From Actinomycetota bacterium (GTDB lineage Bacteria; Armatimonadota; SYMT01): a stretch of DNA of 55,304 bases. Below are positions 3,268 through 35,212 of the stretch, one piece after another. Positions within the stretch are counted from its first letter, which is position 1. Each line of letters opens with the position of its first letter. The notes under the pieces were generated by a model. That model did no database searches and was not told where the DNA came from. It worked only from the letters and a program-made list of their open reading frames with translations. The position numbers and the translations under genes were made by a program. The DNA is taken from contig SYMT01000553.1 in the NCBI GenBank assembly GCA_005805375.1, forward strand, positions 1-55,304. The letters run 5' to 3'.

Positions 3268-4970
3268 TTCATCCTTTCTGACTCCGGAAATCGGAGGAGG
3301 CTTCGCGCAATCAACACGGGGGAGGACGCCCGCCGTCGCGTGGCGTCGGTTCCCGCCGCGTCCTTTCCGTCCTTCAAAGCCGGCGCCGGATTGGCAAGCC
3401 GCAGCGTCGGCAACGTGGTGTCGCGGCCCGCGCTGACCGTCGCCTCGATCTCGCCTTCCACACGGGGAGCGGGAGAGGCAACCGGATCGAACCGGAATAG
3501 GCGAAGCACACGGTAGACGCCCGGGCGCACGTGTTCCAGGCGCGCGCGCCCCTGCGAATCGGTCACCACATCCATCCAGCGGCGTCCTCCCCAGCCGTCC
3601 GCCGTCCGTGGAGCAAGACTGATGCCGACTTCTCCCTCCACCGCCTTCCCCGCTGCGTCCTGCACGGCGAAGACCACCGCCCCGCCCTTCTCATCGTAGA
3701 GCGCCCGGCGGTCGGAGCGGCTGCCGGCAGTTTCCATCTCGGGGAGCGCAAGCCCGGAAAACTGGAACGGCACTGTGCGCCCCGGTTCAGACCGCGCCAT
3801 CAGGTCGTAGACCAGCCGCGCCGGGTCCTCCGAGAGCCCTTCGAAGCGCAGCGACTGCTCGGCCACCCGAAGGCCTTCCACCACGCGAACGCGGGTCGGT
3901 ATGGGCGAATAGTCCCGAATTACATTGCCTTGCCGATCCACCAGGTATGGAACGGGCGCGCGGCTCACACCGCGCCCGACCAGGTTCATCGCGGGCTGCC
4001 ACGCGAGACGGGCATCCACATACACTACATTGCCCTGACGGCGCCAGCGAGACAGGCGCGCTTCCACTCCGCCCTGACTTTGCGCAGGGAGTGACCGGGC
4101 CTCACCTCCAGGAGCCTCCAACGGGAACTCCAGGTGGACCGGACTCACGCGGGAATAGAGAAGCAGGCTCCCCTGCACCGAGCGCAGGCGCACCGCCCGC
4201 TGATCCCGCAGACGCAAAAAGACCGTCTGTGCGAACTCGAGCAACCGGCCGCGCGTGGCCGAACTGGACCGGACGCCCTCCAAATCCTGCGCTTCCAACG
4301 TCCGCCCAAAGTTGTCCACCGCGCGGAACTCCGGTCCCAGACCGACCACGGCCTCCGCCGCGGTCTCGTCCGGCGCGTAGCACCGGAGCGTCGCGCGAAT
4401 CTGGCCGTCCTCACTCGCCGGTGCGATGGACGCCATCCGCACGCGATACTCGCCCGCCCGCGTCTCCGGATCCGACCGGTTGGACCGTTCGACCACCTGG
4501 AACCCCGTCGCATCTATGCTGTAGAACTCGCACCCGTAGGCCGTCCCCAACTCGTCGAGGACGCGTCCCAGCGGGGTATCCTTCCAGTCGAAATCCCGGC
4601 GGAGTCCCTCCGTTTCCCGCCCGACCACGAGGCGAAACTGGTAGCCCAACAGCGGGGCCAGCCGTTCTGTCACGTCGTTGAGGGTGCTCTGCCGAAAACG
4701 CGCAGTGATGGACTGAGCTTGGGAGGGGATTGAAGCCAGTGACAGCCAGACAGCGAGCACAACGGCGAGCAGCGGACGGCGAGCGGCGCAGGTTTCGTGG
4801 ATGACAGGACTGCTGGGTTCCGCCGGCTCGAGCTCGGCAACAGGTGCGCGGCGAGCGACAAACGGCGAATGGCGAGAGTAACGGGTTCCGCGGATTGCAG
4901 GATTGGAGAGTTCCGTCGCCTGGAATCCGACCACTCTCGAAATCCGGCACCCCGGTCTCCTAGTGCCCAC
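3249..4970 (-). CDS. Secreted or membrane-anchored hypothetical protein with a C-terminal carboxypeptidase-regulatory-like (Ig-like) domain
   Basis: A hydrophobic segment RRPLLAVVLAVWLSLASIPSQAQS is present. The C-terminus reads GEVGISLAPRTADGWGGRRWMDVVTDSQGRARLEHVRPGVYRV (CarboxypepD_reg-like). The start is placed at GTG 4970, which is preceded by GGAGG with a 6-nt spacing. The longest ORF runs to 5120, so the start is uncertain. Confidence 0.55.
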   Translation of the reverse strand: MGTRRPGCRISRVVGFQATELSNPAIRGTRYSRHSPFVARRAPVAELEPAEPSSPVIHETCAARRPLLAVVLAVWLSLASIPSQAQSITARFRQSTLNDVTERLAPLLGYQFRLVVGRETEGLRRDFDWKDTPLGRVLDELGTAYGCEFYSIDATGFQVVERSNRSDPETRAGEYRVRMASIAPASEDGQIRATLRCYAPDETAAEAVVGLGPEFRAVDNFGRTLEAQDLEGVRSSSATRGRLLEFAQTVFLRLRDQRAVRLRSVQGSLLLYSRVSPVHLEFPLEAPGGEARSLPAQSQGGVEARLSRWRRQGNVVYVDARLAWQPAMNLVGRGVSRAPVPYLVDRQGNVIRDYSPIPTRVRVVEGLRVAEQSLRFEGLSEDPARLVYDLMARSEPGRTVPFQFSGLALPEMETAGSRSDRRALYDEKGGAVVFAVQDAAGKAVEGEVGISLAPRTADGWGGRRWMDVVTDSQGRARLEHVRPGVYRVLRLFRFDPVASPAPRVEGEIEATVSAGRDTTLPTLRLANPAPALKDGKDAAGTDATRRRASSPVLIARSLLRFPESERMKWYDRY

Positions 4971-32321: not shown

Positions 32322-32369
32322 TTACCGGGCGTACGGATTCGACGGGGCGTGGATGGAGGTGGTACGACG

Positions 32370-33197
32370 ATGGGACTCTTACAGAATCAAGTCGCGGTGG
32401 TGACCGGCGCCGGCCGAGGAATCGGTCGCGCAATGGCGCTGGCGCTGGCCGCGGACGGAGCACGCGTTGCGCTCGCGTCCCGGTCCGTGGAGCAGTTGGC
32501 GGCGGTAGCGGGTGAGATTACCACCGCCGGCGGCACTGCTCTCTGCGTGCCGACCGACGTAGCGGACGCGAACGCGGTGCGCCACATGGCGGACACGGTC
32601 GAGGCCGGGCTGGGCCCGATTGACCTGCTGGTAAACAACGCCGGCAGCTTCTTCGCGATCGGCCCGGTGTGGGAAGTTGACCCTGCACGCTGGGAACGGG
32701 ACCTTCAAGTGAACCTATTCGGGCTGTTTCGCTGCTGCCGGGCGGTGCTCCCGGGAATGGTCGTCCGTAACTCAGGGCGGATCATCAACGTGATCGGGGG
32801 AGGGGCCGGCACGTCATTCCCGTACGGCAGTGGCTACGGGAGCAGCAAGGCAGCCGTCACGCGCTTCACGGAGTGCGTGGCTGATGAACTGCGCCTGGCT
32901 GATTCCGCCGTGGCCGTCTTTTCGCTTTCGCCGGGCCTCGTCCGCACGGAACTCACCGAGTTCCAACTCCGCAGCCCGGAGGGCCGGCAGTGGATGTCCC
33001 GAATCGAGCAAATGTTCGCAGAGGGGAAAGATGTTCCCCCGACAAGGGCTGCCGGCCTGACGGTTGCCCTGGCGACCGGACGCTTCGACCGCCTCTCCGG
33101 CCGCTGGTTCGGAGTGACTGATGACCTGGACGCCATTGCCGCCGAGCAGGACGACATCCTGCGGCACGATCGGAAGACCCTCCGCTTCCGCATCTAA
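32370..33197 (+). CDS. Short-chain dehydrogenase/reductase (SDR)
   Basis: The ATG at 32370 has a GGAGGT SD. Motifs present are VAVVTGAGRGIGRA, NNAG and YGSSKAA. Confidence 0.9.
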   Translation: MGLLQNQVAVVTGAGRGIGRAMALALAADGARVALASRSVEQLAAVAGEITTAGGTALCVPTDVADANAVRHMADTVEAGLGPIDLLVNNAGSFFAIGPVWEVDPARWERDLQVNLFGLFRCCRAVLPGMVVRNSGRIINVIGGGAGTSFPYGSGYGSSKAAVTRFTECVADELRLADSAVAVFSLSPGLVRTELTEFQLRSPEGRQWMSRIEQMFAEGKDVPPTRAAGLTVALATGRFDRLSGRWFGVTDDLDAIAAEQDDILRHDRKTLRFRI

Positions 33198-33258
33198 ACC
33201 GCTACAAAATCCATTCGTGGTAGTTGCTCCAACCACAAGAAAAACGACCGAACTCATG

Positions 33259-33287
33259 TTGACACGACCGGGCAATCTGGATAAGAT
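33259..33287 (+). promoter_or_regulatory. Near-consensus sigma-70-type promoter
   Basis: TTGACA (33259-33264) is followed by a 17-nt spacer and then TAAGAT (33282-33287). It lies in a locally lower-GC intergenic region with no annotated plus-strand gene downstream. Confidence 0.55.
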
Positions 33288-33293
33288 GCTAGC

Positions 33294-33684
33294 GTAAGGG
33301 GGCGGCGCAGTCCCCGAGACCGGACGGCCCGAAAGGGGCTGGAGGAACCAGTGATGACCCCGCCGGACTGCTTTTTCCGAACCCTGTGACAACAGGGTTC
33401 GGCGACCAATTTTCTCATCGAACCACTTCCCTTTCCGTTCCGGATGACCTGATGCAGGTTGCACAAGTGTTCCCCACGGAATACAGACGATCCAGTGAGC
33501 GATCAGGCGGGTGTGATGAGTGCGGAGCGGGTGATCGAACGCCGACGGCCTGTTTTGCCCGGGAGTAAGGCCGAACATGGAAGTGAGCGAAGGCCACGCT
33601 CACGTTTCATGTGAATCGATGTCACCGTCCGTAGCGATGGAGCTTTAGGGAGGGGGCACACGCTGTGTGCCCCCTCATTCTTGT
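33294..33684 (+). ncRNA. Orphan roughly 390-nt transcription unit: a structured RNA and/or a small-ORF pair (11-codon mini-ORF plus an overlapping 60-codon ORF)
   Basis: The unit is bounded by the promoter above and the terminator hairpin at 33650-33676. Hairpins include gcagtcc (33307-13)/ggactgc (33365-71) followed by TTTTT, ccgaaccctg/cagggttcgg (33377-33402), and gtgagcg/cgctcac (about 33582-33603). GGAGG (33341-45) lies 8 nt before the ATG at 33354, giving MTPPDCFFRTL with its stop at 33387-89. GTG 33386 overlaps that stop and opens a 60-codon ORF ending at 33568. I could not match any known RNA family. Confidence 0.35.
33650..33684 (+). terminator. Strong stem-loop terminator candidate
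   Basis: gagggggcacac (33650-61) pairs perfectly with gtgtgccccctc (33665-76), followed by attcttgt. The trailing tract is T-richer on the plus strand than on the minus strand. Confidence 0.55.
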
Positions 33685-33745
33685 ACCGCCGGCGAGTCGC
33701 CGTGCCGGGTTTGCCCAGGCGACCCCGAGGGCAACTACCGATCGG

Positions 33746-35212
33746 TCAACCCCGCGGCGGGGTGGCGGACTTGTCTTCCGGACGCGCGGCGGGCTCAAGT
33801 TCCTGCTCGGGACCAGGACTGCGCCACTCACCTGTGAGCCGCGCGCCGAGGGGGTCGCGCGCCAGACGTCCCGCCAGTTGTCCGACCCTTGCGGCGCCGG
33901 GCTCACGCACCGAGGCCAACCCGACCATCGCGGCCCAGCGGCCGAGGGCGGATAGCAAAAACACTACTTTGAACGCGAGCGCAAACTCTTCGGGCTTCAA
34001 TCCGCTCTTCGCCACACTGACCAGCCAGCCACCGATCAGTGCGCCGCACCCGCCGGTGATGCCGAATGCCGCTTGAAACAACGCCACGTAGGTGGCTCGG
34101 TGCTCGCGCCGCGCCAGCTTGAGTGCCAGATTCGATGCGCAGAGATTGACGCCGGACCACGAGAAGCTGCCGACGAGGCTGGAGAGCACGGCGATCCAGT
34201 AGCAGGGCACCATCAACGTCCAGAACCCCAGATCCACCCTCCAGGCGCCGGGGCCCGCAAAAATCCACCAGACCGGGATGGTCCCCATCCCGACGCAGAA
34301 CAGGATCGCCACCGGGCGATAGCCATAGTGGTCCGCCAGGCGACCACAGAGCCGATTGCCTCCCGCATTGGACAGACTGGAGATGTTCTCCCAGATCTTC
34401 ATTACGAGCAGCGGGACTCCCAGGAGCTTGAGCGCGTAGAACTGCCACATCGGCGCCGCCACCTGGACGAAAAACATGATCCAGCACCGCGTCAGCGCCA
34501 GCCGGCGGAAACTCGTGTCTCGCAGGGCCGCGCCGAGCGCTTCCGCAAAGGGCATGTTCTTGCGGGCATGCGCCACCCGCACCAACGGCACGCGCGACAG
34601 CACGAGGACTCCGGTGATACCCAATGATGCGCCGAGCACGGCCATCGCGCCGATACCACGCAGGTCTCCCTTGGGCATGGTGTTGAACCACCAGTCCGCA
34701 AAGACACCGGCGCAGAGTCCGACCGGGGTACTGAACACGAGTGCGATCATGTTCTTGCGCCCGAGGAAGCGACCCCAGAACTGTACCGGCGCCAGATCCG
34801 CCACCCAGGTATACCAGGCCACCAGCGCCATCTGTCCACTCAGAGCAGCCACCCCGTTGGCCAAAATCAGCGCCCACACCGGGCCCTGCATTCCCGGACG
34901 GAGGAGGAAGAGGGTGCTGAGGCCGATGGTCATCCAGACCAGCCGGTTCAGGAACATCAACGACAGCGCGAGCCGGCGGCAATCGTCCGTCCGGGTGAGG
35001 ATCCACGAACTGCTGATCTGTAGTGCGGACACGAACTGCGGCACCGCCTGGAGGATCGCGATCTCCGGCGCGCCGGCGCCCATTTCCGTCGCAAGCTTGA
35101 CGAGAAGGATTCCCGCCGTGAGCTGACCGTTGAGGGCGCCGAGGGCGCCCTCGGTGACAACCAGGCGGCGCGCCCGGCGGAGCTGGCGGTTCGTCAGATT
35201 CCCGGTGGGCAC
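33746..35212 (-). CDS. MFS transporter
   Basis: The 488-aa product has multiple hydrophobic helices. GTG 35212 is preceded by an AGGAGG SD. The C-terminal tail is hydrophilic. Confidence 0.85.
   Translation of the reverse strand: MPTGNLTNRQLRRARRLVVTEGALGALNGQLTAGILLVKLATEMGAGAPEIAILQAVPQFVSALQISSSWILTRTDDCRRLALSLMFLNRLVWMTIGLSTLFLLRPGMQGPVWALILANGVAALSGQMALVAWYTWVADLAPVQFWGRFLGRKNMIALVFSTPVGLCAGVFADWWFNTMPKGDLRGIGAMAVLGASLGITGVLVLSRVPLVRVAHARKNMPFAEALGAALRDTSFRRLALTRCWIMFFVQVAAPMWQFYALKLLGVPLLVMKIWENISSLSNAGGNRLCGRLADHYGYRPVAILFCVGMGTIPVWWIFAGPGAWRVDLGFWTLMVPCYWIAVLSSLVGSFSWSGVNLCASNLALKLARREHRATYVALFQAAFGITGGCGALIGGWLVSVAKSGLKPEEFALAFKVVFLLSALGRWAAMVGLASVREPGAARVGQLAGRLARDPLGARLTGEWRSPGPEQELEPAARPEDKSATPPRG

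Follow-up and report, generated by a model that had tools for sequence, protein, structure and literature searches.

What occupies the gap between a short-chain dehydrogenase/reductase (SDR) gene (32349-33197, + strand) and a convergent major facilitator superfamily (MFS) gene (33746-35212, - strand) on contig SYMT01000553.1, the 55,304-nt stretch of DNA analysed here as the window, which belongs to a metagenome-assembled genome (MAG) of Armatimonadota? An original prediction, made from the letters alone, had placed in this gap an orphan unit running from promoter to terminator, with a mini-open reading frame (mini-ORF) led by a Shine-Dalgarno (SD) sequence, an overlapping 60-codon ORF and multiple hairpins, and had offered a structured small RNA (sRNA), an attenuator-like leader or a small-peptide locus as its possible nature. 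Every feature so described was located in the gap, and the length of one hairpin alone had to be corrected. Judged from its sequence and its homologues, the locus is a real, conserved, putative RNA gene that is absent from Rfam 15 and from the literature searched, and its best-conserved part is a core in which an SD is followed by AUG ACN CCN CCG GAC U, the start of a mini-ORF that reads MTPPD. We tentatively propose, with somewhat less than even confidence, that the unit stands alone as a riboregulator or mini-mRNA, the body of which would owe its fold or its stability to translation of the Pro-Pro-Asp mini-ORF.

A promoter-to-terminator unit in the gap

A sigma-70-type promoter, TTGACA-17-TAAGAT, was found where it had been predicted, at 33259-33287 on the + strand (TTGACA from 33259 and TAAGAT from 33282, with a spacer of 17 nt), and it matches the consensus at 10 of 12 positions. 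It is the only promoter-like site across the 1.4 kb from 32800 to 34200, in which 0.1 would be expected from shuffled sequences, and transcription is predicted to start at about 33294. At the other end, an intrinsic terminator (33650-33684, + strand) consists of the anticipated GC-rich 12-bp stem (33650-33676), in which nine of the 12 pairs are G-C, with a 3-nt loop and a T-rich tail, ATTCTTGT, that is present on the + strand only. The G+C content of the unit is 0.60 vs. 0.66 for the whole window, in keeping with the lower GC that had been noticed in the gap. With its own promoter and intrinsic terminator in an intergenic position, a layout that is expected of an sRNA gene and is shared by the homologues, the unit is predicted to be an RNA gene, about 385 nt long, that is transcribed independently.

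The conserved core (33341-33369, + strand) comprises the SD GGAGG (33341-45), an 8-nt spacer containing UGAUGA, and AUG ACC CCG CCG GAC U (33354-69). The mini-ORF that begins at this AUG (33354-33389) has 11 codons, MTPPDCFFRTL, and a UGA stop at 33387-89, exactly as originally read. Its stop codon lies at the loop of a hairpin (33377-33402) that is indeed perfect and is present in both the minimum-free-energy and the centroid folds, with a stem of 11 bp and not of 10 bp as had been stated. A hairpin directly after the core is also found in other lineages, and in Rhizobiales it covaries.

Folding of the whole unit, compared with shuffled sequences, gave z=-4.0 for the + strand and z=-2.35 for the - strand, while the 5' module alone folded no better than shuffles (z about 0). 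The transcript had been predicted to begin with a long-range stem, GCAGUCC (33307-13) with GGACUGC (33365-71), followed by U5 (33372-76), which would enclose the SD and the start codon of the mini-ORF. The letters of this candidate stem are present, but it is one of several competing pairings and is outside the minimum-free-energy fold, and neither the stem-plus-U5 arrangement nor the U-run is conserved in the homologues; a comparable outer pairing, ACAG/CUGU, can be drawn in the Rhizobiales units. In the window RNA, the AGG of the SD is placed in a hairpin loop with an unpaired probability of 0.8-0.99, and residues 33357-72 have several alternative downstream partners, which include 33498-33511 (+ strand; 79% complementary to the mini-ORF region 33359-33372; pairing probability about 0.22), 33561-71 (0.44) and 33621-24. 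The Rhizobiales segment CCGGACUGU may likewise pair with the upstream ACAG or with a downstream ACRGC.GG, and the latter pairing encloses the covarying hairpin, in which five pairs show double (compensatory) changes. A short ORF and an SD that overlap alternative stem-loops, as in a leader-peptide attenuator, are therefore found here.

A 13-nt direct repeat, GA(G/C)GA(A/T)CCAGUGA, was also observed within the unit at 33342-33354 and 33486-33498, 144 nt apart; its second copy precedes a GGCGGG segment that is able to pair with the mini-ORF region.

The original prediction had recognized no signature of RNase P, tmRNA, signal recognition particle (SRP) RNA, 6S or common riboswitches, with which Rfam and ARAGORN agree: the unit matches no Rfam family. 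A scan of 32500-34500 with Rfam 15 at E<=10 gave nothing inside 33259-33649, and the sole match in the scanned region was that of the terminator hairpin to STnc320 (17 bits). Nothing was found at the motif sites of 18 homologous loci at the Rfam gathering score, and one Acidobacteriota unit and one unit of a second Armatimonadota family, scanned at permissive E-values, yielded sub-threshold noise only. With ARAGORN, neither a tRNA nor a tmRNA gene was predicted anywhere in the window. A divergent RNase P, 6S, SRP or tmRNA gene was rejected on these negative results and on the length of the units, which varies from 200 to 520 nt between lineages. A hammerhead (CUGAUGA) and a C/D-box or kink-turn (RUGAUGA) in the spacer were dropped as well, as their letters are not conserved across lineages and have no Rfam match; UGAUGA before or at the AUG is present in four of the six units of the window's family, the window included. 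Nothing relevant to 'MTPPD' or to an sRNA located between uvrA and ssb came up in the literature searched.

Distribution and specificity of the core

The family to which the window genome belongs (f1) is represented by seven genomes. BLAST of the 461-nt unit against 40 relatives gave no match: with only about 30 nt conserved, it failed to detect true homologues, which were found instead by synteny through the SDR gene. Downstream of the SDR orthologues in two other genera of the family, 64% (G005) and 57% (G004) identical, lies a gap of about 400-450 nt, which carries an SD-AUG-MTPPD block and has a terminator hairpin at its end. Alignment of the three gaps shows essentially one block, GGAGG-N8-10-AUGAC[C/G]CC[G/A]CCGGACU, and the respective mini-ORFs are MTPPDCFFRTL, MTPPDSCTCPKGSSNIGSVARAAL and MTPPDSICR. 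R1, a sequence model of the conserved core that was used for further searches, adds G002, a MAG listed by NCBI as 'Actinomycetota' and assigned to the window's family in the genome collection, and G006 (MTPPDRS), so that five of the seven family genomes carry a promoter-to-terminator unit of about 400 nt. The family units end in a terminal hairpin, which in the homologous units lies 330-345 nt after the ATG; the six f1 sequences are highly diverged and not alignable outside the core. A single metagenome scan, made with the family-type pattern, gave eight loci, of which two are genuine (L125 and L127) and the others lie in genes; L125 duplicates the L013 contig, with the same length and motif position, and the short contig L127 alone is a new relative. 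The core is kept in five of seven genomes although the flanking SDR proteins are only 57-64% identical, a degree of conservation beyond neutral expectation, and the unit is thus conserved in relatives, a point on which the original prediction had made its case depend.

Beyond the family, one genome per prokaryote species was scanned with the pattern GGAGG-N4-10-ATGACNCCNCCGGACT, which gave 77 loci; by our estimate tens of matches are expected by chance, and many singletons lie in genes. Three sets of loci stand apart from these. A 200-nt unit was found in about 24 Acidobacteriota genomes (Acidiferrales/Acidoferrum type). It has a promoter and the module (MTPPDFERNKS, MTPPDLELNQN and others), its CACCGC hairpin and its GGGGAGCC terminator are both conserved, and the genes downstream converge on it. 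About 17 genomes of Rhizobiales (Mesorhizobium, Chelativorans, Aquibium and Pseudaminobacter) carry a 330-nt unit that adjoins uvrA, with ssb downstream in the two loci checked (L075 and L085) and with mini-ORFs such as MTPPDCSPGSRS. BLAST-type searches with the units of Rhizobiales and of Acidobacteriota, which covered 200 and 300 genomes, returned mostly noise and only three extra homologues (L088, L089 and L119). BLAST thereby added two Rhizobiales members that fall off the search pattern (GGACAG) and keep MTPPD, as L089 does; L119, of Acidobacteriota, reads MTPPA. A tentative set of two Thermoflexus-type Chloroflexota has MTPPD and then stops at once. The distribution is patchy: small clades of three phyla plus this tentative Chloroflexota pair.

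R1 independently recovers a second Armatimonadota family, f7, with four genera. The f7 promoter is TTGACA-17-TACAAT, and near-consensus promoters also precede other homologous units. The f7 frame is MTPPDCSK or a relative of it, and a conserved 3' block and a terminator about 330 nt later follow. The SD in f7 is AAGGAG, which is not complementary to the motif. Upstream of the module by about 56 nt, f7 units (L134, L135, L138, L148, L151 and L152) have a 19-codon ORF with its own AGGAGG, whose UGA stop overlaps the AUG of the module (AUGA) in three genera (g66, g84 and g12); in g89 (L145), 8 nt separate the stop of the upstream ORF from the AUG. Such a stop/start overlap is a classic arrangement for translational coupling. 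The length of this ORF is identical in the three genera and its peptide sequences differ. No upstream ORF is present in the window.

The homologues also bear on whether the unit is a gene of its own. It could instead be the structured 3' untranslated region, or a read-through tail, of the SDR mRNA, ended by a terminator that is shared with the convergent MFS gene. No convincing terminator is found between the SDR stop (33197) and the promoter, and the SDR gene adjoins the unit in three genera, in one of which (G005) the -35 box overlaps the SDR stop codon. However, the linkage is confined to these three genera, and the homologues in G006, f7, Acidobacteriota and Rhizobiales have strong promoters of their own and no nearby SDR gene. 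Together with the near-consensus promoter in front of the window unit and the T-tail on the + strand only, these observations make a 3' untranslated region very unlikely.

The specificity of the core was assessed with R1, which at E<=0.001 had no match in 350 evenly sampled other Alphaproteobacteria and only two in 150 Rhodobacteraceae, both in genes and without an SD. The singletons L059, L065, L066 and L074 were left out of the count because these control searches showed chance matches in genes; around L059, no conservation was found in Rhodobacteraceae, where the R1 matches are of this chance kind. The exact 16-mer pattern occurs once in each of 10 other carrier genomes and the window genome has one DNA/R1 match, which makes the element single-copy in the 11 genomes checked. 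The R1 controls argue that the core motif, as a sequence, is specific.

It could nevertheless be held that the likeness across phyla is due to chance or convergence and that the window unit is a family-specific sRNA, which would be compatible with either of the mechanisms discussed below. Only about 30 nt are shared, the scan pattern is expected to find tens of chance matches, several singletons proved to be such, and a hairpin that sequesters the SD would favour CCNCC just after the AUG in any lineage. But in each lineage an orphan promoter-to-terminator unit has the motif as its best-conserved block, and the exact AUGAC..CC..CCGGACU register is kept even where pairing with the SD is impossible. 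As R1 also recovered f7 independently and found nothing in the 350 control genomes, we consider a chance resemblance unlikely.

Constraint on translation and on the RNA

Does the unit encode a protein? The 60-codon GTG ORF (33386-33568, + strand) overlaps the mini-ORF stop and was judged non-coding. Its G+C content at third codon positions (GC3) is 0.52, in agreement with the earlier hand count of about 50% that had marked it as atypical, vs. 0.76-0.82 in the five flanking genes; it has no Pfam match, and no frame is kept in the syntenic homologues. It is not a gene, because a six-frame comparison of the homologous units revealed no frame-specific conservation and no conserved protein. Open frames of 52-70 codons do occur on both strands of the gap, which would allow for a small-protein gene in the form of the 60-codon ORF or of one on the minus strand. 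Since the GC3 of these frames is 0.52-0.62, well below that of the real genes, and since they have neither Pfam matches nor a conserved frame, a small-protein gene is scarcely credible. Nor does the mini-ORF resemble the hydrophobic peptide of about 20-60 amino acids of type I toxin-antitoxin systems: MTPPD alone is conserved, and the tails are variable and not hydrophobic. The full-length conservation expected of the peptide of a dual-function sRNA is likewise not seen, as the ORF varies from 5 to 42 codons and nothing is conserved beyond residue 5-6 across lineages.

All homologous mini-ORFs open with MTPPD, except for the MTPPA of L119, and continue with 0-37 unrelated codons. The AUG never varies, and every lineage, f7 included, has an SD 5-10 nt before it. 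The 16-mer has two variable positions, which in the AUG frame are the third bases of codons 2 and 3; all four synonymous forms are found for each of these codons, and no non-synonymous change was found in codons 2-4. Free wobble bases upstream, combined with a fixed codon 4, codon 5 and next base, would fit a ribosome that is paused with the second Pro codon in its P site and Asp in its A site. Because conservation is limited to five codons and the frame of some homologues ends there, the function is likely to reside in the act of translation and not in the peptide product.

Based on these features, we propose that a near-consensus promoter of its own and an intrinsic terminator would give rise to an RNA of about 385 nt, the functional core of which, about 50-75 nt from the 5' end, would comprise the SD, the AUG, ACN CCN CCG GAC, a short variable tail and a hairpin. 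Ribosomes would initiate on the mini-ORF and then slow down or abort on reaching Pro-Pro-Asp; at that point the second Pro codon would occupy the P site and Asp the A site, and the nascent chain would be four residues long. Pro-Pro-Asp is a drop-off-prone context that depends on elongation factor P (EF-P), especially on a short nascent chain (PMC12856214). The stalled ribosome would cover CCGGACU, a segment that may otherwise pair with alternative upstream and downstream partners, and ribosome occupancy would in this way set the fold of the downstream 300-nt body and with it the stability or activity of the RNA, which would presumably act on targets in trans. Of the three options offered originally, a blend of the first two, sRNA and attenuator-like leader, is supported, and the 60-codon gene and the classical cis attenuator are not. 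The latter would need a same-strand structural gene directly downstream; the next gene is the convergent MFS gene, the homologues also have no such gene before their terminators, and the stem-plus-U5 arrangement is not conserved.

Several observations weigh against a mechanism that runs through translation. The third positions of codons 4 and 5 (CCG and GAC) and the following U are almost invariant, and the wobble bases of codons 2 and 3 are fixed within lineages: ACU CCA is found in all Acidobacteriota units but L053 (CCC) and in most Rhizobiales units. Invariant synonymous positions imply that much of the constraint is on the RNA and not on the peptide. In L030 and L074, changes at the wobble bases are matched by changes on the SD-side strand, as they would be in a plain hairpin. 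Most of the cross-phylum homologues were retrieved with a pattern that fixes the positions of codons 4-5, and the argument from purely synonymous change is therefore partly circular. The folding z-scores of the homologous units indicate a thermodynamic stability that is unremarkable and not strand-specific. Nothing can be aligned between lineages beyond the core of about 30 nt, which leaves homology, as opposed to convergence, unproven; an nhmmer profile of the f7 units run against the f1 units found the core alone, plus a 13-nt block in L013 (CGCGAACUGAAGU). Finally, a survey of the neighbourhoods of the units found no recurring partner gene, partner protein or target.

Much of this would be expected of an element that acted purely at the RNA level. 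The unit would then be an sRNA acting in trans, its AUG would be incidental, and GGAGG and the C-rich CNCCNCCGGAC would together build a hairpin, with a structural or seed-masking role, or else provide a binding site for a protein. The invariant CCG, GAC and U and the wobble bases fixed by lineage fit such an element. So does the near-perfect inverted repeat formed by the SD strand and the motif in Acidobacteriota, which is perfect in L030, as do the compensatory changes in L030 and L074 and the recurrence of C-rich, anti-SD-like loops, such as the ACUCC loop in the 3' domain of the Rhizobiales units. However, the register of the pairing between SD and motif differs between lineages, and a single rigid helix therefore does not explain the conservation; neither f7 nor the window has this pairing, and in the window a loop holds the SD. 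An incidental AUG would also leave unexplained why it is invariant behind an SD at 5-10 nt, why in three f7 genera the stop of the upstream ORF falls precisely on AUGA and why both variable positions of the 16-mer are codon third positions in its frame. We regard a purely RNA-level element as doubtful, though not to be lightly dismissed. Both kinds of constraint, on peptide or translation and on the RNA, are visible, and translation of the mini-ORF as a gate for the RNA body is the mechanism against which known systems are compared below.

Comparison with known systems and neighbourhood of the units

Translation-sensing regulatory mini-ORFs are known mainly as cis leaders of enterobacterial operons, whereas the same logic would here head free-standing RNAs; the module is a variation on regulatory mini-ORFs and on sRNAs that bear a small ORF (sORF). 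Among the latter, SgrS/SgrT, RNAIII/hld and SR1/SR1P encode a functional peptide of 26-43 amino acids. Like them, the unit is a putative stand-alone promoter-to-terminator RNA of a few hundred nt with a small frame and a structured body; unlike them, it has only five conserved codons, directly after which some homologues stop. The ermC leader and the cryIIIA STAB-SD are 5' stabilizers, defined in Firmicute mRNAs, that use a bound or stalled ribosome. What they share with the unit is a strong SD close to the 5' end, in some cases accompanied by a short ORF, in an RNA of which the body is not what is translated, but they have no conserved peptide motif comparable to MTPPD. Strong SD, AUG and very few codons are also the constituents of the lambda bar minigenes, two-codon phage elements whose translation leads to peptidyl-tRNA drop-off; these are not known to be linked to Pro-Pro-Asp or to a structured RNA body.

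The closest parallels in layout are found in the mgt leaders of Salmonella. mgtP contains consecutive proline codons and is sensitive to EF-P (PMC3641672, PMC5299641), and mgtQ is an 8-codon ORF with AGGAGG whose ribosome-destabilizing acidic codons open a downstream structure (PMC8092293). mgtL, mgtP and mgtQ thus resemble the mini-ORF described here in being very short, in having a strong SD and in being embedded in alternative stem-loops (PMC3641672, PMC5299641, PMC8092293). In the mgt leaders, Pro or acidic codons stall or abort the ribosome and the position of the ribosome decides the fold, which is only proposed for the window unit; a link to EF-P, proline or Mg2+ is established for the former and proposed for the latter. 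The two also differ in that the mgt ORFs are cis leaders or intergenic operon elements that control a downstream gene, whereas the window unit has no same-strand gene and has a promoter and a terminator of its own. Moreover, the MTPPD start is kept in clades of at least three phyla, and the mgt ORFs are described in Salmonella and a few other enterobacteria.

A broader version of the proposal, which is speculative and to which we give only a small chance, is that SD-AUG-ACN-CCN-CCG-GAC-U is a portable ribosome-read sensor, a stall- or abort-prone 'minigene' that is attached to unrelated RNAs in clades of several phyla. Such a module might report the status of EF-P, proline-tRNA or Mg2+, or might sequester peptidyl-tRNA-Pro, and could have spread by transfer or by convergence. 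If true, it would define a new class of translation-gated stand-alone riboregulators, and it would offer a compact handle on how poorly studied phyla monitor their translation capacity. The module is directly testable in its cultivable Rhizobiales carriers, Chelativorans, Aquibium and Pseudaminobacter.

The surroundings of the units gave some further observations. The window SDR gene closes an NRPS-like (nonribosomal peptide synthetase-like) operon, and those of G005 and G004 follow rplJ-rplL, outside the NRPS-like cassette. In f7, the units of L148 and L151 (genera g84 and g12) are divergent from a gene for a DtxR/MntR-like regulator, which is followed by one for an Nramp (MntH-like) transporter, both identified from N-terminal sequences only; this arrangement was not seen in the f7 genus g66. 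On contigs L039, L072 and L084, which come from MAGs with the labels Verrucomicrobiia and Methylomirabilota, the units and the genes upstream of them are near-identical to the Acidobacteriota type, and these labels probably reflect mis-binning or mislabelling and not a wider distribution. The MAG of L013/L133 (SYKE01000146.1), which carries the RNA unit, is publicly labelled 'Actinomycetota bacterium' and is placed in the window's family. In L027, an Acidobacteriota-type unit has, at a distance of about 200 nt, two tandem copies of a group II intron (4038-4949; Rfam matches to D1-D4 and domain V), and in G004 a long tandem array of GGAGAGAC repeats begins just after the terminator of the unit (L007, 4650-4700 and beyond).

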